A DNA stretch of 64,000 nucleotides from Seonamhaeicola sp. MEBiC01930 (lineage in GTDB: Bacteria > Bacteroidota > Bacteroidia > Flavobacteriales > Flavobacteriaceae): NCBI RefSeq assembly GCF_045277075.1, contig NZ_CP104270.1, positions 1,524,631 through 1,588,630 of the forward strand, written 5' to 3'. The position numbers and the translations under genes are program-made. Shown here in pieces: positions 3,066-56,272 of this stretch (position 1 is the first letter of the stretch; every line of letters begins with the position of its first letter). The notes beneath the pieces are model-generated. The model was not told the DNA's origin and ran no database searches. It worked only from the letters and a program-made list of their open reading frames with translations.

Positions 3066-5627
3066 CTATTTTTTCCCATGTTTTCTGTAAAGATTATCTG
3101 TGGCTTGTAATAGTTTTTTCTTTAAGTTTTTATCAAGTGTTGGATTTGAATTAATGTAGTCTTTTACCATAAGATAAGCTTCTTTAGAATTATATTGGCC
3201 AATAGTATTATTTAACCATCCTAGTGGGAAAAAAATATCTCCTGTTTGTTGAATTTCTTCAAGAATTTCCAGACTCATTTCTACAGATTTAATTCCTTCA
3301 TTTTGTTTCAGAGGATGATGAATATACCATGCTGCTGTTAATGTCCAATTTTCTTTTTCTCTGTTTTTAGGATCTTTAAATGATTTAAAAAATGCTGTTC
3401 TTATCTCAGGATCAGGATCTAACGCAGGTATTAAAAACTCAAATCGTTTTATTTTATCAGCATTGGTAAGCTCTGACTTAGATTTTGCTAATATCTCCTT
3501 TGACTTATGATGACCAAACAGTGCTAATTGTTGTCCCAAATAGGTATAATCGTCTTGGTTTAAAGTTAGATTATTTATAGTTTCTTCTTTACTCCAAATC
3601 CTATAAAGTTTTTCAATTCCAGATTTAGAATGTGCAATGGATTTATAACTATTAAAGAGCGATTTTTTGATGTTTTTGGATTCATTCTGTTGAAGTCTGT
3701 TATAGATTAGTTGTTCTAATTTAGGCAGGTGAGCGAGACGTTGTTCATGTGTGAATGAATTCCAATATAGATTAGTTAATTGCGCAGAAATTATTTTTAA
3801 AATTAGTTCATTGAGCTCTGTTTCCAGTCCTATTTTGAGATTTTCAAAAGCAATCGTATTATTAATTGTTCCATTAAGAGTGTTTTCATAAATGTTTAGA
3901 TAAGATTGCGCTCTTGAAACTTCTTCTTTTATTGAAAAGGTTTGTTTTATAACTGCATCATTAACTGGAAATACCCCATACCCATACCCATCGCTATTAT
4001 ACAAGATATACATGGGTTTTGGAGCTCCAATAGCTTGCGCTATTTCTATGCTCTTTGCATTGCTTAGCACAGGAATTGTAACAATTTTATTCGGGTATAC
4101 AAGGCTAATATCAAAAGATTGAGGCCAAAATTTTGATGAGCCATCTTCTGCATTTTGAGTAAGAATAAATTGTTTAATGTTATTGGTGTTATCAAATTGA
4201 ATATCTTCATGAAATACAGGTCTTCCAGTTGAGTTAACCCATACATCACTCCAAGTTTGTAAATCAAGATCTGTTTTTTTATCAAGAATAGTTATTAATT
4301 GATTCCAGTCGGCATTACTATTTGCATAGGTGGAAACATATTCTCTAATCCCTTCTTTAAAGTTTGTTTTCCCTATTGATAACTCTAACTGACGCATCAT
4401 AATAGGGGCTTTATTATATATAATACTTCCATAAAGTGATCCTGCATTATTAAGATTGTCCAATTCTTGCCGAATTGCATTCGCGCCTTGTGTACGATCA
4501 ACTCCATAGGCCCTTGGATAATGTGATATTAAAAATTGAAGGTCATGATTGATATCAGTGAAAACAGGATTTACAATTTTATCTGCCATAAAATTAGCGA
4601 ATACTTCTTTCATCCATACATCATTGAACCATTGCATTGTCACTAGATTTCCAAACCACATATGTGCCGTTTCATGTGCAATAAGTTTTGCTCTAGATAA
4701 TTCTTGTGAGCGAGTAGCACTTTTATCTAAAAATAAACTGGACTCTCTATATTGTATCGCACCTGTGTGTTCCATCCCTCCATACTGAAATCCTGGGATA
4801 GTTGCAAAATCAAATTTTTGAAATGGAAACTGATATTGAGTGTAGTTTTCTAAAAAATCTAAAGAAGATTGGTGCAAATTAAAAATAGCTGATGTACTTG
4901 TCTTAATTTTTTCTTCATTGGTTTCTCTATAAAGCATATTCATGGTACGATCTGTTTCTTGAGAGTTAACTGCTGTAAACTTTCCAGCTACAAAAGAGAA
5001 CAAATAGGTGCTCATTTTATTAGATTTTTCAAATTGATAAGTTATCGATTCTTTGTGGGTGCTTTTTCTAATAATTGGAGCTGCACATAGAACCTCCCAG
5101 CTTTTTGGAGCAGTAATACTAAGCCTATAATTAGCTTTGATGTTTGGTTGATCGAAACATGGAAATAATGTTCTGGCGCGGTCAGGAACTAATAATGTAT
5201 ACAGAAAATCGCTATTTCTATTTAAAGATAATTCACCAGCTATAAAATCAATTTCTATAGTGTTTAATCCCAATTGTAAAGATTCTTTAGGAATTATGAT
5301 GTGTTCTTTAATGTGAGTTATAGCAATTGGTTTTTCATTAACAATAATGTTTTTTAACGCCGATGATTGTTCTTTAAAATCTAAATAAAGTGGATGAGTA
5401 AGATGATTTATATTAGTTTCCAAAACAAGGTTAGCTACTATGGGCAGTTCTTTTTCTTTTGGAATGTTAAAAGATAAATGATAAACAACATCTTGTACCT
5501 GCGTACTTCGATAGTTTGCCAAGTCTAATGAAACTCCAGTACTGTTAAATAATAAAGGTTCTTTAGGAGTTTTTGTACAAGAAATACAATAAAGTAGCGC
5601 AAATATGTATAATAAAGATTTAGTCAA
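3066..5627 (-). CDS. M1-family zinc aminopeptidase (aminopeptidase N-like) lipoprotein
   Basis: gluzincin motif HETAHMWFGN...E; GAMEN-like GGMEH; lipoprotein signal with Cys. Confidence 0.85.
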   Translation of the reverse strand: MTKSLLYIFALLYCISCTKTPKEPLLFNSTGVSLDLANYRSTQVQDVVYHLSFNIPKEKELPIVANLVLETNINHLTHPLYLDFKEQSSALKNIIVNEKPIAITHIKEHIIIPKESLQLGLNTIEIDFIAGELSLNRNSDFLYTLLVPDRARTLFPCFDQPNIKANYRLSITAPKSWEVLCAAPIIRKSTHKESITYQFEKSNKMSTYLFSFVAGKFTAVNSQETDRTMNMLYRETNEEKIKTSTSAIFNLHQSSLDFLENYTQYQFPFQKFDFATIPGFQYGGMEHTGAIQYRESSLFLDKSATRSQELSRAKLIAHETAHMWFGNLVTMQWFNDVWMKEVFANFMADKIVNPVFTDINHDLQFLISHYPRAYGVDRTQGANAIRQELDNLNNAGSLYGSIIYNKAPIMMRQLELSIGKTNFKEGIREYVSTYANSNADWNQLITILDKKTDLDLQTWSDVWVNSTGRPVFHEDIQFDNTNNIKQFILTQNAEDGSSKFWPQSFDISLVYPNKIVTIPVLSNAKSIEIAQAIGAPKPMYILYNSDGYGYGVFPVNDAVIKQTFSIKEEVSRAQSYLNIYENTLNGTINNTIAFENLKIGLETELNELILKIISAQLTNLYWNSFTHEQRLAHLPKLEQLIYNRLQQNESKNIKKSLFNSYKSIAHSKSGIEKLYRIWSKEETINNLTLNQDDYTYLGQQLALFGHHKSKEILAKSKSELTNADKIKRFEFLIPALDPDPEIRTAFFKSFKDPKNREKENWTLTAAWYIHHPLKQNEGIKSVEMSLEILEEIQQTGDIFFPLGWLNNTIGQYNSKEAYLMVKDYINSNPTLDKNLKKKLLQATDNLYRKHGKK

Positions 5628-31450: not shown

Positions 31451-32551
31451 CTATTTACTCACAGAGAAAATATCTTTTAATTGTGTTACAATACCACCAT
31501 TACCAGAAACGGTAATCTCACCAATTTTGTCGGCAATTTTTTCAACATATTCCATCTCTTTTAGTTTGTACAGCATGTCATTCTCTTCCATCAACTTTGC
31601 CGTATTTAACAAACTACGGGTAGAAGCTGTTTCTTCACGTCTTGTAATAATGTTGGCTTGTGCACGTTTTTGAGCTACTAATACTTGGTTCATAATCTCT
31701 TTCATGTCTCCAGTTAAGATGACGTCTCTAATACCGCAGTTCAATACGCTTACACCTAATTTTTCTGCAGCTGTTTTAACATTTTCAAACACCGCTTCTG
31801 CAATGTTGTCTTTACGTTCTAACAACTCATCTAAAGTGTAAGCGCCAACGTAGGCACGTAACACCAATTGCATTGCAATGTATAATTGCTTTTCGTAGTC
31901 TTTGTTTTCTAATAAAGCTTTTTCAATATCGGTAACTTTGTACTGAGTGTAAAAGTTGATACGGATAGCCGCTTTATCTTTAGTTAACAATTCCTGACCC
32001 GCAATTTCTAATTGTAACTGACGCAAATCAGCCTTTGCAATTTTAATTGAGGTGTCGTTTCGCCAGAATCTGTAAATACCACCCGTTAAGGTTTTAGCAT
32101 AAACATCATCTACTAAAAGCACCGCTTTTTCGTAAGCAGCAACCTCAAAGGTTCTAATATACTTGCTTAATTCATAGTTGCTGAACAAAGCCTTGTCTAG
32201 CTTTTCAGTAATATAAATTTTGCTTAAGTCTAATCGTGTAAATTCACGCTCAATTAAGCCCTTCCAGTACACGTAACGTCCGGCAGTTAAAATGGTTTTA
32301 AAGTTTCCTTTTTCGTAAACTAAAACCAATTCGCTGTCCTTTACTTCAATTACGTCTAACATTGCCGCAAGCGTTTCGTCTTTTAGTAAGATTTCTAACG
32401 CTATAGGGGCTGTAAAGGCATTCTCTAAGCTATAAATAAGCGCACGTTGCTTAAAACCTAACCAATGTTTTCCTTCTGTAATTACTTTTAGGTAATCACC
32501 TTTTTTGAAAACTAAACCTACTTTTCCTGCATTAATTCTTACTCGTTTCAT
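31451..32551 (-). CDS. SPFH/band-7 (stomatin/flotillin-like) family protein
   Basis: PHB-domain similarity; coiled-coil C-terminus. Confidence 0.7.
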   Translation of the reverse strand: MKRVRINAGKVGLVFKKGDYLKVITEGKHWLGFKQRALIYSLENAFTAPIALEILLKDETLAAMLDVIEVKDSELVLVYEKGNFKTILTAGRYVYWKGLIEREFTRLDLSKIYITEKLDKALFSNYELSKYIRTFEVAAYEKAVLLVDDVYAKTLTGGIYRFWRNDTSIKIAKADLRQLQLEIAGQELLTKDKAAIRINFYTQYKVTDIEKALLENKDYEKQLYIAMQLVLRAYVGAYTLDELLERKDNIAEAVFENVKTAAEKLGVSVLNCGIRDVILTGDMKEIMNQVLVAQKRAQANIITRREETASTRSLLNTAKLMEENDMLYKLKEMEYVEKIADKIGEITVSGNGGIVTQLKDIFSVSK

Positions 32552-32671
32552 TTTTACATTTTTTAAAATTAAACATTCGCTTTTGCCCTTTTAAAGGCGG
32601 TGGCAATTCCTGTAACGGAGGGTTTACCAACTTCAATTCTCAATACGAGTACACTGAGTTTTAAAGTATAT

Positions 32672-32770
32672 TTTTGGGCGTTACCCACAAGGGGTCGGGC
32701 TTTCCGTACATAGTTTTGGTTCGATGCACGCCTCACCAAAAGCTAACCACTTCAATCCCTAACGCGATAA
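32672..32770 (-). repeat. conserved non-coding element copy A in the 5' leader of the SPFH gene; second copy at 36422-36576
   Basis: shared blocks GGGCGTTACC(C)ACAAGGG(G)TCGGGCTTTCC and CTAACCAYTTCAATMCCTAACGC in both copies. Confidence 0.55.
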
Positions 32771-33080
32771 TTCGTCTTAAAAACAGCAGATTAAAAATCA
32801 TCTGTCCAGTACGGAGATACTCATATTAATAACCATTAATAAATAGTGTTATGTGTTGGGTCATAAAAAGGACGTATCAAATCAATTAATACTTGGTTTC
32901 TAATTCTGAACACAAAACAGTAGTTATAGCTAACTATTAAAAATCAGTATGTCTAAGTACTTTCAAGATTGCTTTGGCTTTGGGAGCACCAATGCTGATT
33001 CATAATCTCACTGTTTTTGCCATTTTTATTAAGTAGTGTGACAGACTACTGTTATCAGTTTTACAAGATGATAAGCTTCA

Positions 33081-33125
33081 ACCTACATTATGAGTGTAGT
33101 GCTCTACCCACTGAGCTACGAGGCC
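33081..33125 (-). pseudogene. 5' half (positions 1-44) of a tRNA-Met(CAT) gene, lying immediately 3' of its own 3' fragment (circularly permuted order)
   Basis: minus-strand sequence GGCCTCGTAGCTCAGTGGGTAGAGCACTACACTCATAATGTAGG: acceptor, D arm and anticodon arm are perfect, then the sequence diverges. Confidence 0.55.
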
Positions 33126-33130
33126 TAAAA

Positions 33131-33163
33131 TGGTGGCCTCGACAGGATTCGAACCTGTGACCT
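33131..33163 (-). pseudogene. 3' fragment of a tRNA (variable loop, T arm, acceptor 3' strand, encoded CCA) whose acceptor strand exactly complements the tRNA-Met 5' half 5 nt downstream
   Basis: minus-strand sequence AGGTCACAGGTTCGAATCCTGTCGAGGCCACCA; no matching 5' half lies upstream. Confidence 0.55.
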
Positions 33164-33330
33164 AAATGAGACATTTTTACAGAATGTCAACTGTTCGCTA
33201 GAACCCTAATCTAGTGCGTCTGCCATTTCCGCCATATCCCCCGTTTGGGAAATAGTGGGACTCGAACCCACACGAATTGGTGGATTTTTTTGGATGAAAT
33301 CCTAACCTTCAAGTCTAGTTGAATATAAAA
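33164..33330 (-). other. tRNA-like fragments. A Leu-like 5' part (GGGGATATGGCGGAAATGGCAGACGC plus anticodon-like hairpin CTAGA-TTAGGGT-TCTAG) lies downstream of a T-arm/acceptor fragment (GTGGGTTCGAGTCCCACTATTTCC) whose acceptor strand pairs with it. This is a second permuted arrangement
   Basis: D-arm similarity to type-II tRNA-Leu; acceptor GGGGATA pairs with TATTTCC through two G-U wobbles. Confidence 0.35.
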
Positions 33331-33450
33331 CCGCAATACTTTCATGCAACGATTTATACAATAGTGCTATACCGAAACACTCAACAAGACCAGCTTGATG
33401 CTGTTTCCTGCGTAAGCAGGAATATCATTCATTCAATGAACTTAATATTG

Positions 33451-33523
33451 CGGAACAGACAGGAATCGAACCTATATCTATGCATTTTCAGTGCAGCGCA
33501 TTGACCAACTTTGCTACTGTTCC
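33451..33523 (-). tRNA. tRNA-Phe (GAA); D stem is weak
   Basis: acceptor GGAACAG/CTGTTCC; anticodon loop CTGAAAA; T arm GGTTCGATTCC. Confidence 0.6.
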
Positions 33524-33529
33524 TTTTTG

Positions 33530-33599
33530 AGCATCCATCAAGATTCGAACTTGATCTTAGAGGATATACCTCTTGTGCGAGCCATTACACTATAGATGC
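33530..33599 (-). tRNA. tRNA-like gene with an aberrant anticodon arm (5-bp stem AGAGG/CCTCT with a 5-nt loop TATAT); possible pseudogene
   Basis: good acceptor GCATCTA/TGGATGC, D arm and T arm (TCAAGTTCGAATCTTGA); no 7-nt anticodon loop. Confidence 0.35.
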
Positions 33600-33633
33600 T
33601 CCATACCAATTATCAACCATTAATTGGTGTTTT

Positions 33634-33706
33634 GGGTGACTTCGGGATTCGAACCATGTTCTTCTCATCCACAATGAGACGTTTTACCAATTAAACTAAA
33701 GACACC
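33634..33706 (-). tRNA. tRNA-His (GTG)-like with G-1; T stem and acceptor each carry mismatches, so possibly a pseudogene
   Basis: anticodon arm TCTCA-TTGTGGA-TGAGA; D arm with U8, A14, G18, G19; T stem CATGG/CCCGA does not pair. Confidence 0.4.
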
Positions 33707-33710
33707 ATTT

Positions 33711-33783
33711 TGGATAACCTGAAAGGATTTGAACCTTTACCTCAAGAGTCAAATTCTTGAATGCTGCCATTACACCACAGGTT
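33711..33783 (-). tRNA. tRNA-Gln (TTG), CCA encoded
   Basis: acceptor TAACCTG/CAGGTTA; anticodon loop ATTTGAC; T arm AAAGGTTCAAATCCTTT. Confidence 0.8.
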
Positions 33784-33790
33784 ATTTTTG

Positions 33791-33863
33791 TAAGCTTAAT
33801 AGGATTCGAACCCATACTTCAAGGTTCGTAGCCTTGAGTGCTATCCAATTACACCATAAGCTT
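33791..33863 (-). tRNA. tRNA-Arg (ACG)
   Basis: acceptor AAGCTTA/TAAGCTT; anticodon loop CTACGAA; canonical D and T arms. Confidence 0.8.
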
Positions 33864-33868
33864 ATTTG

Positions 33869-33942
33869 TACTCTACCCAAGATTCGAACTTGGACTGAAC
33901 GGAGTTTAAGACCGATGCCTCTTCCAGTTGGGCTAGTAGAGC
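33869..33942 (-). tRNA. degenerate tRNA-like gene with good acceptor and T arm but disrupted D and anticodon stems; likely a pseudogene
   Basis: T arm CCAAGTTCGAATCTTGG; acceptor GCTCTAC/GTAGAGT; anticodon region TCGGTCTTAAACTCCGT forms only 3 bp. Confidence 0.3.
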
Positions 33943-33947
33943 TTAAG

Positions 33948-34021
33948 TACAGGAAGAGAGATTCGAACTCCCAGTTTCTCGAGTCTAAGTCGAGCGCGTT
34001 TTCCCATTTCGCCATTCCTGC
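33948..34021 (-). tRNA. tRNA-Leu(TAG)-like: Leu-type D arm and TAG anticodon, discriminator A73, but the long variable arm is missing, giving a 74-nt type-I architecture
   Basis: D arm TGGCGAAATGGGAAAACGCG resembles tRNA-Leu; anticodon arm CTCGA-CTTAGAC-TCGAG; variable region only AAACT. Confidence 0.4.
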
Positions 34022-34026
34022 GTTTG

Positions 34027-34099
34027 TTGAGGTATTAGGAGTTGAACCCAAATCACCCGAGTTAAAAGCTCGGTGCTTTAACAATTAAGCTATACCTCA
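34027..34099 (-). tRNA. tRNA-Lys (TTT)
   Basis: anticodon arm CCGAG-CTTTTAA-CTCGG; T arm TTGGGTTCAACTCCTAA. Confidence 0.8.
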
Positions 34100-34105
34100 A
34101 TTTTG

Positions 34106-34177
34106 TACTCCGTAGGGGAATTGAACCCCTAATTCCACATAGAAAGTGTGGCGTCTTAACCATTTGACCAACGGAGC
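34106..34177 (-). tRNA. tRNA-Glu (TTC)
   Basis: anticodon arm CCACA-CTTTCTA-TGTGG; T arm AGGGGTTCAATTCCCCT. Confidence 0.8.
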
Positions 34178-34183
34178 AAATAT

Positions 34184-34200
34184 TTCGTCTGAGAAGTAGG
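34184..34200 (-). repeat. 17-nt direct repeat of the tRNA-Pro 3' end (TTCGTCTGAGAAGTAGG versus ...GCAGG), about 70 nt downstream of tRNA-Pro
   Basis: 16 of 17 nt identical to 34266-34282. Confidence 0.5.
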
Positions 34201-34269
34201 AATAACTTCGTTTTTCCTGCAATGTCTCAACTCGAACCAAATTCAAGTAAACTTGATTTGATTACTTCG

Positions 34270-34341
34270 TCTGAGAAGCAGGATTCGAACCTGCGACCTC
34301 CCGTGCCCAAGACGGGTAAACAACCACCGTTATCTTCCCAG
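34270..34341 (-). tRNA. tRNA-Pro (TGG)
   Basis: anticodon arm CCCGT-CTTGGGC-ACGGG; T arm GCAGGTTCGAATCCTGC. Confidence 0.75.
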
Positions 34342-34347
34342 ATTTTG

Positions 34348-34435
34348 CGGAGAGCAAAGGAATTGAACCTTCATTACCAAAACGGTAAACTCACTTAGCA
34401 GGTGAGCGCAACAAACCAATATTTGCCTACTCTCC
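34348..34435 (-). tRNA. tRNA-Ser (GCT), type II with long variable arm
   Basis: anticodon arm CTCAC-CTGCTAA-GTGAG; variable hairpin TACC-GTTTT-GGTA; T arm AAGGTTCAATTCCTT. Confidence 0.8.
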
Positions 34436-34441
34436 GGTTTG

Positions 34442-34513
34442 CGGTTCATACGAGAATCGAACTCGTTTCTCCCGAGAGACAATCGGGAAGGATAGCCATT
34501 ACCCCAATGAACC
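34442..34513 (-). tRNA. tRNA-Asp (GTC)
   Basis: anticodon arm CCCGA-TTGTCTC-TCGGG; acceptor GGTTCAT/ATGAACC. Confidence 0.8.
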
Positions 34514-34519
34514 AATTTG

Positions 34520-34591
34520 TATATCTACTAAGATTTGAACTTAGACTTAGAGTTTAGAAGACTCTCGTGCTATCCATTACACCATAGATAT
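34520..34591 (-). tRNA. tRNA-Arg (TCT)
   Basis: perfect cloverleaf; anticodon arm AGAGT-CTTCTAA-ACTCT. Confidence 0.85.
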
Positions 34592-34597
34592 GTGATG

Positions 34598-34680
34598 TGG
34601 GAATTGAAGGATTCGAACCTCCTAAGTTTAAAACAACTGTTTTACAGACAGTCCCAGCTCTCCAACGCTGACGAATTCCC
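34598..34680 (-). tRNA. tRNA-Tyr (GTA), type II
   Basis: anticodon arm ACTGT-CTGTAAA-ACAGT; 13-nt variable arm; acceptor GGGAATT/AATTCCC. Confidence 0.8.
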
Positions 34681-34697
34681 TTGAAAATCGGCAAAGG

Positions 34698-35231
34698 CTA
34701 CTTCGCCGATTTTTTAGCTTTCTTGCTTTTCTTTTTCTTCTTCTTTTTAGGTTTTATTTTTTTCTTAACACGGCTCAATTCGTTTTCTACATAGTTAATG
34801 ATGCAGTTATCAGTTGCTAGCTTAATTGATGTTTTGTAAACTTTTACAGCTGCTTTAAATTGACCTTGCTCTTCTAATAAAACCGCTTTGTAATAGTGTA
34901 AAATAGATTTGTTTACACCTTTTATAGTCAAAGCAAATGTTATCAGCTTTTCGGCTTCATCATAGTCTTCATTCCATAGTAATGTTTGAATGTAGAATGG
35001 ATAAGTTTTTGGCATTTCCATCTCATGAGCCACCGCTTCTGCATAATATTGTTTAGCTGTTTCGTAATCTTTTAATTGTTCAGCATAAACACGTCCCATT
35101 AAGCATAAGGCTTGAGCATCTTTACTGTTATATGATAAAGCGTAGTTCAATGCTTCCAAGGTTTCTTCTAACTCATATGGATAAGCATCTAAAGCTTTAA
35201 ACAAATAGTTGTTATGTAAATTATTTTCCAT
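34698..35231 (-). CDS. TPR-repeat protein with a poly-lysine C-terminal tail (KKKIKPKKKKKKKSKKAKKSAK)
   Basis: TPR-like repeats YAEQLKDYETAKQYYAEA...; tail encoded by an A/T homopolymer-rich tract. Confidence 0.65.
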   Translation of the reverse strand: MENNLHNNYLFKALDAYPYELEETLEALNYALSYNSKDAQALCLMGRVYAEQLKDYETAKQYYAEAVAHEMEMPKTYPFYIQTLLWNEDYDEAEKLITFALTIKGVNKSILHYYKAVLLEEQGQFKAAVKVYKTSIKLATDNCIINYVENELSRVKKKIKPKKKKKKKSKKAKKSAK

Positions 35232-35384
35232 TGTTTTAAATTTTAAGGCATTAGTTTTTAACCCATGTTAGGGTTAACATGCCTTGTTTTTTAAATAGTC
35301 TATAGAGACCTGTTTTAAATGCACACTAAAAAGTGGCTATTAAAACCGATTCAGACCGGTATTCTTAAATTTTAGGAATAAAAA

Positions 35385-35413
35385 AATCCGAAACAGTTTA
35401 CTTGCTTCGGATT
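35385..35413 (-). terminator. orphan rho-independent terminator (stem AATCCGAA, loop, stem TTCGGATT, then T-run on minus) inside a 690-bp gene-free region
   Basis: 8-bp stem followed by T7 on the minus strand; no annotated gene upstream within 400 bp. Confidence 0.45.
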
Positions 35414-35553
35414 CTTTTCTGGAAAATATACCTACTTAAAGCAGATGCGCAGAAAATACCGAAGCCTTGTGAGTGATTCAAAATCACTATACCTATTCCA
35501 AAAGGGTATACTATGTTGTAACATGACTTCTTTTTTTTATTAATATTTGTTTG

Positions 35554-56123: not shown

Positions 56124-56131
56124 TATATTTG
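56124..56131 (+). promoter_or_regulatory. Bacteroidetes -7 box TATATTTG about 25 nt upstream of tRNA-Asn
   Basis: TAnnTTTG motif inside a (TA)n run. Confidence 0.4.
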
Positions 56132-56156
56132 CGCTCGCAAAAGCGAAACATAACCT

Positions 56157-56230
56157 TCCTCAGTAGCTCAGTTGGTTAGAGCATCTGACTGTTAATCAGA
56201 GGGTCGTTGGTTCGAGCCCAACCTGAGGAG
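56157..56230 (+). tRNA. tRNA-Asn (GTT)
   Basis: acceptor TCCTCAG/CTGAGGA; D arm AGCTCAGTTGGTTAGAGC; anticodon loop CTGTTAA; T arm GTTGGTTCGAGCCCAAC. Confidence 0.9.
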
Positions 56231-56235
56231 CGTTT

Positions 56236-56272
56236 AAAGAAAAAGCCTTTACAGAAATGTAAAGGCTTTTTT
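56236..56272. terminator. bidirectional terminator (stem AAAGCCTTTAC, loop, stem TAAAGGCTTT, then T-run)
   Basis: 10-bp stem followed by T6. Confidence 0.6.

Follow-up and report, generated by a model that had tools for sequence, protein, structure and literature searches.

[quoted passage not shown] In these RNAs the T arm precedes the D arm, a loop closes an acceptor stem of variable length, the elbow nucleotides are conserved, and the anticodon stem is built by the 5' and 3' flanks (RF02553; PMC4201824; 10.1101/312249). A dimeric-tRNA origin has been proposed for them, and the version with a 7-bp acceptor, found in M. smegmatis, is cut by RNase P and receives an added CCA (PMC4201824). An initial annotation of the DNA studied here held that a permuted tRNA topology was not described in bacteria, a statement that the description of YrlA makes outdated (10.1101/312249). 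[quoted passage not shown] A permuted module of acceptor and T arm is also present in the bacterial two-piece (permuted) tmRNA. GOLLD RNA (RF02032) carries tRNAs embedded in its linker. It lies beside or inside tRNA arrays, and its structured 5' and 3' domains flank the tRNA-shaped elements.

We analysed a 64,000-nt stretch of the chromosome of the flavobacterium Seonamhaeicola sp. MEBiC01930 (the window), in which two tRNA-like units, A and B, follow an array of tRNA genes on the same strand. We consider it probable that both are closed-acceptor tRNA mimics forming the central part of a structured noncoding RNA of about 620 nt, placed at the 3' end of the tRNA-array locus immediately downstream of the array. 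The locus is laid out as follows.

34680-33450, minus strand: array of 14 tRNA genes, spaced by 4-5 nt and lacking an encoded CCA (ARAGORN, Rfam)
33422-33399, minus strand: hairpin TTCCTGC-TTAC-GCAGGAA (33422-33405) and a short spacer, between tRNA-Phe and the RNA (direct reading)
~33399-32779, minus strand: structured RNA of ~620 nt with units A and B at its centre (conserved domains in alignments A1-A4)
33399-33272, minus strand: 5' domain (alignment A3)
33271-33164, minus strand: unit A, Leu-like (direct reading, alignment A2)
33163-33083, minus strand: unit B, Met-like (direct reading and the ARAGORN call on the rejoined unit)
33076-33032, minus strand: two hairpins after unit B (helices 1 and 2 of the alignment A4 consensus)
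33076-33053, minus strand: invariant 24-mer GCTTATCATCTTGTAAAACTGATA, holding one of these hairpins (exact in 28 species representatives)
33050-33032, minus strand: covarying hairpin AGTAGT-CTGTCAC-ACTACT (alignment)
33017-32779, minus strand: 3' domain (alignment A4)
32770-32689, minus strand: Flavo-1 motif, a separate element downstream of the RNA and before the slipin gene (37.7 bits; gathering score 42)

Unit B reads directly as the following parts.

33163-33159, minus strand: variable loop AGGTC
33158-33142, minus strand: T arm ACAGG/TTCGAAT/CCTGT
33141-33135, minus strand: acceptor 3' strand CGAGGCC
33134, minus strand: A73, followed by CCA at 33133-33131
33130-33126, minus strand: acceptor loop TTTTA
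33125-33119, minus strand: acceptor 5' strand GGCCTCG
33116-33101, minus strand: D arm, preceded by TA
33099-33083, minus strand: anticodon arm CTACA/CTCATAA/TGTAG, with a CAU anticodon

This reading agrees with the initial annotation, which had described a minus-strand tRNA 3' part ending in CCA, then TTTTA, then the 5' part of a tRNA-Met(CAT), with complementary acceptor strands in 3'-before-5' order; all 7 of 7 acceptor pairs form. The tRNA origin of the pieces is likewise borne out. In native order neither unit is called a tRNA by ARAGORN, and rejoining the pieces of unit B produces a canonical tRNA-Met(CAT), as had been stated, with a length of 76 nt in place of the 77 nt given. Both halves lack a partner in the normal position, as the initial annotation had also stated; a chimera of the Leu 5' part and the Met 3' part leaves the GGGGATA/CGAGGCC acceptor unpaired and reaches only 23 bits with the tRNA model, with mismatches flagged.

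Unit A repeats the order of the Met pair, again as first described, and its parts, by direct reading, are these.

33271-33255, minus strand: T arm GTGGG/TTCGAGT/CCCAC
33254-33248, minus strand: acceptor 3' strand TATTTCC
33247-33242, minus strand: acceptor loop CAAACG
33241-33235, minus strand: acceptor 5' strand GGGGATA
33232-33216, minus strand: D arm of Leu type
33214-33198, minus strand: anticodon-like hairpin CTAGA/TTAGGGT/TCTAG
within 33197-33164, minus strand: variable-arm-like hairpin

Its acceptor has 7 pairs, two of them G-U, and the rejoined unit gives no tRNA call by ARAGORN. The Leu-like version of unit A is common to the window and four related loci (L001, L024, L030, L036), with an anticodon loop that varies among TTAGGGT, TTTCGGC, TTTCGGT, and TTTTGGT. 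A pattern scan of the whole window found no closed units besides A and B.

Synteny was compared across related Flavobacteriaceae at loci collected via slipin homologues, an exact-protein look-up of the window slipin having given no match. The same two units occupy one orthologous site, in the order TPR gene, tRNA array, element, slipin gene, in 30 other genomes, and they are found in the same place in 16 marine metagenome contigs. Both units are thus present in 31 of 31 genomes, spanning more than 10 genera, and in every metagenome contig that reaches far enough; carriers that can be cultivated include Winogradskyella, Hanstruepera marina, Seonamhaeicola marinus, and Flaviramulus sp. BrNp1-15. 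The neighbouring genes (TPR, TerB-like, slipin, kinase-like, and inositol monophosphatase) are the same in relatives. A phage origin was considered and rejected: the window is ordinary Flavobacteriaceae chromosome, and two conserved motifs were unmatched in 2.9 million viral contigs. Within Flavobacteriaceae the ~620-nt RNA is passed on vertically and stays at a single place in the chromosome. It persists in L001, which has lost the array, and in L002, which has only 3 of its tRNAs left.

Acceptor pairing reaches at least 5 of 7 positions in all 62 units of the family, and 7 of 7 in 32 of them, whereas at 135 true tandem tRNA junctions of related arrays the adjoining acceptor strands pair mostly at 2-4 of 7 positions; the pairing in the units is therefore not due to chance. 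In the alignment of unit B (A1), 95.9% of cells are paired and 7 of 7 acceptor pairs have changed on both sides, while in that of unit A (A2) 96.1% of cells are paired and 16 of 21 pairs have changed on both sides. None of 500 shuffles reached the observed value for either alignment, and slid controls gave 25-37% paired for unit B and 41-51% for unit A, although the shuffle controls overstate significance because the aligned sequences are related. Across its orthologues unit B shows no change at U8, A14, A21, C61-C62, one G of the D loop, or the GGTTCGA core of the T arm, and the nucleotides from which a tRNA elbow is built are among those without change.

This covariation bears on the proposal that the two units are a decaying, functionless remnant, left by a deletion or a site-specific recombination scar in a former tRNA tandem. 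Decay does occur nearby, in that the array holds a real remnant, a 13-nt tRNA-Pro 3' end repeated 82 nt downstream, and array content turns over quickly, with 0 to 14 tRNAs in relatives. The units themselves, however, keep one syntenic site across 31 genomes (more than 10 genera), and each of their helices has compensatory changes; this covariation contradicts decay. We found neither an integrase nor a recombinase in a domain scan of 30 window ORFs that included all those of at least 400 aa, and no match in viral contigs. We regard a decaying remnant as extremely improbable, and both the att scar and the simple deletion remnant raised in the initial annotation fall with it. The tandem duplication followed by deletion that it also raised is plausible as an origin, in the form of a tandem tRNA pair that shed its outer halves.

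The features that a decoding tRNA would need are much less constant. The anticodon position of unit B holds CAT, CAA, TTT, GTT, TAA, or GTA among orthologues, or is replaced by a 5-nt loop; ACCA is missing from most orthologues; and the acceptor loop ranges from 2 to 24 nt among orthologous units. In 26 of 30 relatives unit A has no anticodon hairpin, and the anticodon stem is made there by the 5' and 3' flanks. As judged from these alignments, the fold is shown to be under selection and the decoding features are not. Units A and B are tRNA-shaped domains and not a broken or reassembled tRNA-Met gene.

A true circularly permuted tRNA gene would require ligation or circularisation across 43/44 and opening at the acceptor to give a normal tRNA-Met. 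The halves do follow the same order as in the permuted tRNA genes of algae and archaea, and of the two rejoined units B is canonical while A draws no tRNA call. Those genes differ from the units in having a terminal bulge-helix-bulge, which is absent here: in predicted folds the immediate flanks of unit B show neither this nor any other pairing, and the RNAalifold consensus of alignment A4, which starts beside unit B, has no bulge-helix-bulge pairing. The identity of the tRNA varies among orthologues here, with anticodons that change, acceptor loops as short as 2-5 nt, and a unit A that could not yield a tRNA in most species, and a larger conserved fold surrounds the units. The 30 window ORFs scanned, with all those of at least 400 aa among them, contained no domain of RtcB or of another RNA ligase, and to our knowledge no splicing endonuclease has been reported in bacteria. 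A permuted gene, and with it the permuted or split tRNA-Met spliced to a decoding tRNA that the initial annotation entertained, is accordingly highly improbable, and most likely the units do not encode a tRNA that decodes.

Apart from tRNA itself, the best Rfam match is YrlA. Its model (RF02553) matches unit B over the full length with 36.7 bits (E = 1.7e-6) and reaches 38.0 bits in L003, both below the gathering score of 69. A tRNA-like domain of YrlA type is present: the T arm comes before the D arm, the acceptor stem is closed, and the elbow nucleotides are conserved. In most relatives unit A also has exactly the flank-built anticodon stem of YrlA. YrlA differs in carrying one unit in an RNA of ~100 nt, where two tandem units occur here in ~620 nt, and in having its break in the anticodon loop, whereas unit B is broken at the variable loop (43/44) and has its own anticodon hairpin. 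These similarities might mean that the units are a bona fide Y RNA, binding a Ro60 orthologue, Rsr, encoded elsewhere in the genome. Against this, the outer helices that carry the Ro site are unpaired in the RF02553 match; the Ro-binding motif GNCGAAN0-1G, which in YrlA lies close to the 5' end in a stem built from the ends of the RNA, does not occur in 33425-32779 and is missing from 31 of 32 loci; and no rsr gene, which for YrlA lies on the same strand at a distance of up to about 4 kb, and no TROVE domain was found among the 30 ORFs scanned or beside the RNA in relatives. The ~620-nt RNA is also roughly six times as large as a Y RNA. A Y RNA in this sense is very unlikely. The two-piece tmRNA model (RF04321) matches in part, over the T arm, acceptor, CCA, linker, and acceptor, with 18.5 bits against a gathering score of 47; unlike that RNA, the units have a full D arm and anticodon arm, and no tmRNA was called by ARAGORN.

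The two units sit between structured domains that are conserved with them. The 5' domain has a 10-bp closing helix, TCAAGCTGGT with ACTAGACTTGA, around two hairpins, followed by a GGTT...ACC hairpin whose loop is able to pair with an A-rich downstream segment (GGATTT/AAATCC). This pseudoknot-like pairing covaries by eye, as GACTGTT/AATAGTC, GGATTT/AAATCC, and GGTTTTT/AAAAACC. In alignment A3 (29 loci, RNAalifold) the 5' domain has 28 predicted pairs, long invariant stretches, and many conserved G-U pairs, which are compatible with the minus strand alone. The 3' domain is closed by a long-range helix of 20 bp, 33017-32997 with ~32802-32780, that ends in a U run, and this run is probably the 3' end of the RNA. 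Alignment A4 (22 loci) has 95.2% of cells paired and 18 pairs changed on both sides, with 0 of 500 shuffles reaching the observed value and slid controls at 33-49%, figures to be read with the structure having been predicted on the same alignment. The hairpin between tRNA-Phe and the RNA is shared by nine of the related loci (L004, L007, L011, L015-L017, L019, L026, L031), being kept in most relatives in which no GOLLD-like RNA intervenes. The Flavo-1 motif occurs in only some relatives and is missing at this position in many A4 loci.

No Rfam family matched the ~620-nt RNA. We also considered whether the flanks contain the halves of a permuted group I intron or of another ribozyme and rejected this, as no intron or ribozyme family was hit at E <= 10. 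The Bacteroidetes -7 box TAnnTTTG is absent from the minus strand between 36373 and 31241, a sigma-70 scan also gave no transcript start, and a terminator scan found no standard terminator; these results count against our reading. Our literature search found no account of this RNA, and none of tRNA-like units in permuted order from Flavobacteriaceae or GOLLD.

A GOLLD-like RNA lies directly upstream of the ~620-nt RNA in seven relatives (L003, L006, L008, L009, L021, L029, L030), with a closed tRNA-like unit in its linker, the third such unit at the locus. In L003 it scores 122.6 bits, below the gathering score of 150, and ends about 10 nt before the 5' domain; in the window the GOLLD model gives no match at E <= 10 within 32000-35500. 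The GOLLD-like RNA is thus optional at a locus where the ~620-nt RNA is constant, and GOLLD proper embeds ordinary tRNAs where the units here are permuted and closed. Given this neighbour, a genomic niche like that of GOLLD and ROOL (PMC12286853, PMC12990946), and the shared layout of a 5' domain, tRNA-like units, and a 3' domain, the ~620-nt RNA might by analogy be a further self-assembling ornate RNA associated with tRNA arrays, with the units as linker cargo between assembling domains. Neither its sequence nor the models relate it to GOLLD or ROOL, however, and it is chromosomal with no match in viral contigs, which leaves this reading as a tentative suggestion that we think improbable.

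Taking units A and B as closed-acceptor tRNA mimics within the ~620-nt RNA, we expect the T arm, acceptor hairpin, and D arm of each to form a tRNA L shape with an elbow, the chain entering at the T arm and leaving after the D or anticodon arm. The units would have arisen from tandem tRNA pairs of the array, the 3' half of one tRNA joined to the 5' half of the next, an origin also proposed for YrlA (10.1101/312249) and for algal permuted tRNA genes (PMC3978253). The RNA would share a transcript with the array, from which tRNA processing would free it. Its units may offer their tRNA elbows to an enzyme, another protein, or an RNA that recognises tRNAs, or may serve as stable architectural blocks, and in this they would parallel the tRNAs carried in the GOLLD linker. 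Units with a 7-bp acceptor and a loop of sufficient length, unit B (7 bp, 9-nt loop) included, may in addition be nicked by RNase P, as is M. smegmatis YrlA. Of these roles we favour elbow display to a partner that binds tRNA, perhaps combined with an opening of the 7-bp units by RNase P.

Elbow display alone leaves unexplained the elongator tRNA-Met features and ACCA retained in a subgroup of seven genomes (the window, L001, L007, L023, L024, L028, L030). Unit B in this Met-like subgroup keeps all elongator tRNA-Met features, among them the CAU loop, the 7-bp acceptor, A73, and ACCA; beyond ACCA, the acceptor loop differs (TTTTA, TTTA, TTTTTG, AAAATTG, AAATTA). On this basis, unit B of the subgroup might be a split tRNA-Met mimic, in which RNase P would cut between A33126 and G33125, the trailer would be trimmed to ACCA (3' end at 33131), and a two-piece L-shaped domain tethered to the large RNA would be charged by MetRS or act as a decoy for a tRNA-Met-directed factor. 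In line with this, the housekeeping tRNA-Asn, the one ordinary tRNA gene of this genome in the window, has no encoded CCA, rejoined unit B is a canonical tRNA-Met, and M. smegmatis YrlA offers a precedent for RNase P cleavage and a CCA end (PMC4201824). Close relatives speak against it, having ACTA with CAA (L021, L029) or ACTA with CAT (L036), as do the majority of orthologues, which have no CCA, short loops, and other anticodons; several hundred nucleotides would moreover stay attached at the variable-loop position. A split mimic is unlikely on balance, and we would call it decidedly unlikely that an RNase P-opened unit B with a free ACCA forms a two-piece, tRNA-Met-shaped domain on a large bacterial RNA that MetRS charges or that acts as a decoy for a tRNA-Met-directed nuclease or other factor. 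If true, the opened unit B would be a chromosomal counterpart of the aminoacylatable tRNA-like structures of viruses, made from a permuted tRNA.

Through YrlA, closed tRNA mimics of permuted topology had until now been associated with Ro/Rsr biology, and here they occur as a tandem pair with no Ro signature inside a large, strongly structured RNA. The ACCA-bearing 7-bp units and the short closed units would be natural intermediates for the conversion of a tRNA dimer into a mimic. The ~620-nt RNA would represent a new and widespread marine RNA family, missing from RNA family libraries, in the genomic niche of GOLLD and ROOL, and it suggests that RNAs associated with tRNA arrays generally use tRNA-shaped modules as building blocks or carry them as cargo.

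Units A (33271-33164) and B (33163-33083), the two back-to-front tRNA-like units on the minus strand, lie in an ordinary Flavobacteriaceae chromosome with MetRS, Tex, Mfd, FeoB, TonB-dependent receptors and similar genes, whose slipin shares 91% identity with the Seonamhaeicola marinus protein. The minus-strand order is a TerB-like gene, a TPR gene, a 14-tRNA array, the units region, a Flavo-1 motif and the slipin gene, and the order TerB-like-TPR-array-RNA-slipin is common to Seonamhaeicola, Flaviramulus and Hanstruepera.

Features of the units region and its flanks (unit parts by sequence reading)
34698-35231, minus: TPR gene
33271-33255, minus: unit A, T arm GTGGG-TTCGAGT-CCCAC
33254-33248, minus: unit A, TATTTCC
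33247-33242, minus: unit A, loop CAAACG
33241-33235, minus: unit A, GGGGATA, then a Leu-type D arm
33214-33198, minus: unit A, hairpin CTAGA-TTAGGGT-TCTAG
down to 33164, minus: unit A, variable-arm-like hairpin
33163-33159, minus: unit B, AGGTC
33158-33142, minus: unit B, T arm ACAGG-TTCGAAT-CCTGT
33141-33135, minus: unit B, acceptor 3' strand CGAGGCC
33134-33131, minus: unit B, A, then CCA
33130-33126, minus: unit B, acceptor loop TTTTA
33125-33119, minus: unit B, acceptor 5' strand GGCCTCG
33116-33101, minus: unit B, D arm GCTC-AGTGGGTA-GAGC, preceded by TA
33099-33083, minus: unit B, anticodon arm CTACA-CTCATAA-TGTAG, preceded by A
32689-32770, minus: Flavo-1 motif, sub-threshold (37.7 bits, gathering score 42)
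31451-32551, minus: slipin gene

Unit A is directly upstream of unit B. On direct reading the initial annotation described the tRNA-Met halves accurately except for their length: rejoined in silico, the parts of unit B give a canonical tRNA-Met(CAT) of 76 nt in ARAGORN, not 77. ARAGORN makes no call for the native order or for rejoined unit A, and none across units A and B; its 14 tRNA calls fall at 33450-34680. Acceptor pairing extends over at least 5 positions in 62/62 family units and over 7/7 positions in 32 of these, against 2-4 of 7 positions for most of 135 genuine tandem tRNA junctions in the related arrays. A pattern scan of the whole 64-kb window returned units A and B as its only closed units, and closed units are not a by-product of tandem tRNAs.

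Two further features lie inside the array. The 13-nt 3' end of tRNA-Pro, CTTCTCAGACGAA (34278-34266, minus), recurs at 34196-34184, and the 69 nt separating the copies include a T-loop-like GGTTCGAGT; this extra sequence, in the stretch 34184-34278, resembles a duplicate tRNA that has decayed, or an insertion, within the array, and fills the 91 nt that separate tRNA-Pro from tRNA-Glu. The 71-nt "tRNA-Tyr(ATA)" called by ARAGORN at 33529-33599 (minus) has an irregular anticodon region, AGAGG-TATAT-CCTCT, and is not reported by the Rfam tRNA model; conserved in Flaviramulus (L002 3988-4059), it probably belongs to the array as a non-standard member and is not noise.

The fold of each unit was assessed on alignments with homologous loci from other Flavobacteriaceae genomes (L001, L002 and so on). 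In unit B (alignment A1, 31 sequences; T arm, acceptor, D arm and anticodon hairpin) 95.9% of cells are paired and 12 of 21 pairs show changes on both sides, with slid registers at 25-37%; in unit A (alignment A2; closing stem, T arm, acceptor and D arm) the values are 96.1% and 16 of 21, with slid registers at 41-51%. Shuffles attained this in 0/500 cases for either unit, figures that are not probabilities because the aligned sequences are related. All 7 acceptor pairs of unit B have changed on both sides, through variants such as CGAGGCC/GGCCTCG, CAAAGTC/GACTTTG, CTAGATT/AATCTAG, AACGGT/ACCGTT and CAAGAT/ATCTTG, and the invariant residues (U8, A9, A14, a D-loop G, A21, the T-arm GGTTCGA core and C61-C62) are those that build the tRNA L shape. 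Chance or mere ancestry is nonetheless an inadequate explanation of the pairing, in view of the slid registers and of how many distinct pair types occur.

The units do not stand alone. Upstream of unit A, 33399-33272 is nearly invariant across genera (alignment A3) and is predicted to fold as a three-way junction with a pseudoknot-like hairpin. On the 3' side of unit B, two hairpins precede a domain of ~240 nt; the 20-bp long-range helix that closes this domain (33017-32997 pairing with ~32802-32780) has a U run at its end. Alignment A4, covering this 3' part, shows pairing in 95.2% of cells and both-side changes at 18 pairs, against 33-49% in slid registers and with 0/500 shuffles attaining as much; these figures are favored by the structure having been predicted on the alignment tested. 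Many conserved G-U pairs are compatible with the minus strand only. Together these parts make up a conserved structured RNA of about 620 nt, at ~33399-32779. Outside the units it has no match in Rfam 15, and the units give YrlA-like and tRNA-like matches only; literature searches gave no description of the RNA. Only some relatives have a Flavo-1 motif between the large RNA and the slipin gene, and in related loci further copies lie elsewhere, on either strand; the motif is an independent repeated element. Scanning the region gave neither a sigma-70-type promoter nor a simple terminator, and the minus strand has no Bacteroidetes -7 box at 36373-31241; co-transcription with the tRNA array is thus inferred from spacing rather than a result.

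The 24-mer GCTTATCATCTTGTAAAACTGATA, which lies just 3' of unit B, recurs without a mismatch in 28 species representatives, once in each genome, among Winogradskyella, Jejuia, Hanstruepera, Hyunsoonleella, Psychroserpens, Mangrovimonas, Subsaxibacter, Wocania and unnamed Flavobacteriaceae. The 5'-domain motif occurs in 16 marine metagenome contigs, and neither sequence has a match in the viral contig collection. The large RNA is kept where the array is lost (L001) or cut to three tRNAs (L002). In 31/31 genomes, and likewise in each metagenome contig reaching far enough, the units number exactly two and keep their order and position. This constancy, with a fold under structural selection, speaks against the suggestion that the arrangement is a recombination or deletion scar, while the tandem-tRNA history proposed with it survives as a plausible origin from a tRNA dimer. 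What is vertically inherited as one locus is two tRNA-shaped domains with closed acceptors, under structural selection, with conserved structured flanks.

Identity is not conserved. The unit B anticodon is CAT in the window, L001, L007, L019, L023, L024, L028, L030 and L036, CAA in L006, L021, L022 and L029, and TTT, GTT, TAA or GTA in the remaining loci; one metagenome variant group has a 5-nt loop in this hairpin. Unit A is without an anticodon hairpin in 26/30 relatives, in which the anticodon stem consists of covarying flanks, 5' (T)CTAT and 3' ATAG(A). Leu-like unit A with its own hairpin is a minority form (window, L001, L024, L030, L036), and its loop varies (TTAGGGT, TTTCGGC, TTTCGGT, TTTTGGT). 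Acceptor loops range from 2 to 24 nt, at times with an extra hairpin inside. Such variation would be intolerable for a decoding tRNA and tolerable for a shape mimic. As a separate observation, long (~20-nt) unit A acceptor loops share an internal ATACC(A/G) (L008, L009, L016, L019, L021, L029, L031), complementary to GGTAT in the invariant 5'-domain hairpin loop TCGGTAT (window 33372-33366), which suggests a possible contact between the two loops; one species, L023 (ATGCC), is an exception.

Apart from unit A of L004, the only copies with ACCA after the acceptor are seven Met-like unit Bs. In the Met-like subgroup ACCA persists while the rest of the acceptor loop changes, and in unit B it is unusual for this genome, since neither the array tRNAs nor the housekeeping tRNA-Asn, the window's one ordinary tRNA gene (56124-56240, plus; Bacteroidetes -7 box TATATTTG 26 nt upstream), encode CCA. 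This leaves room for a split, possibly chargeable, tRNA-Met-like domain in this subgroup, a reading we consider improbable.

The gene order of the units is that of algal and archaeal permuted tRNA genes, which need a bulge-helix-bulge motif and splicing endonuclease and each encode one fixed tRNA (PMC3978253). Neither holds for units A and B, whose anticodon and identity vary between orthologues; the initial annotation's permuted-gene reading is not supported. Its remark that it was aware of no description in bacteria is outdated: YrlA RNAs, likened to circularly permuted tRNAs and probably of dimeric tRNA origin, have their T arm 5' of the D arm and an acceptor stem closed by a loop (PMC4201824; 10.1101/312249), so this topology was already known. 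YrlA is the best non-tRNA match of the unit region (full-length model, 36.7 bits, E = 1.7e-6). Unlike YrlA proper, the match is below the gathering score of 69 and leaves the model's Ro-binding helices unpaired; the Ro motif GNCGAAN0-1G is absent from the window large RNA, and no TROVE/rsr was found in 30 window ORFs scanned (including all of at least 400 aa) or beside the element in relatives. We rejected membership of the Y RNA family, since tRNA-like domain topology is the only defining feature present. Units A and B are YrlA-like closed tRNA mimics, doubled, Ro-independent and within a large RNA.

The large RNA shares its genomic niche with GOLLD RNAs, which lie near tRNA arrays and at times carry tRNAs in a linker (PMC12286853, PMC12990946). 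GOLLD has no match in the window; a GOLLD-like RNA lies between array and large RNA in L003 (3737-4240; RF02032, 122.6 bits, below the gathering score of 150), L006, L008, L009, L021, L029 and L030, and its single-stranded linker carries a third closed, permuted tRNA-like unit (L003 ~3815-3890; starts L008:786, L021:2790). Matching closed units also occur upstream in L016 (2750), L023 (6719) and L029 (1381), and several third units have ACCA/ACCG-type sequence after the acceptor.

Other elements accompany the array in relatives. An RNA-like one of ~240 nt, at L005 2253-2492 (minus) between tRNA-Phe and the 5' domain, starts TACCTCTT and ends with T arm GCCAG-TTCGAAT-CTGGT and AAGAGGTA; similar elements occur in L004, L016, L018, L023, L025, L027, L028 and many metagenome loci. 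Unannotated and without an Rfam match, it reads as a large insert closed by an acceptor stem and a T arm, an arrangement that recalls the tRNA-like domain of tmRNA. The adjacent tRNA-Phe(GAA) (L005 2493-2619, minus) has a 55-nt insert in its anticodon loop. The insert's central ~29 nt recur in reverse complement, with one mismatch, in a tRNA-Glu-like anticodon loop of another species; the loci concerned are this one and L022 4160-4285. The insert may be a small mobile insert or intron-like element targeting array tRNAs.

Array spacers are 5-6 nt in two-thirds of junctions and the units' post-acceptor linker is of the same order, which points to derivation of the units from tandem tRNAs of the array. 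The large RNA could then be freed from the array transcript by tRNA processing. In M. smegmatis YrlA, whose acceptor has 7 bp, RNase P cleavage is followed by CCA addition (PMC4201824; 10.1101/312249), and by analogy units with 7-bp acceptors and sufficiently long loops, including window unit B, are plausible substrates. This does not extend to orthologues whose stems have 5 bp and whose loops have 2-5 nt, and therefore cleavage cannot be the common function. The units may offer tRNA elbows to a partner that recognizes tRNA shape, or stabilize the large RNA. YrlA-type topology was already known; what is new in these Flavobacteriaceae is a closed mimic that is doubled, Ro-independent and housed in an undescribed RNA of ~620 nt.
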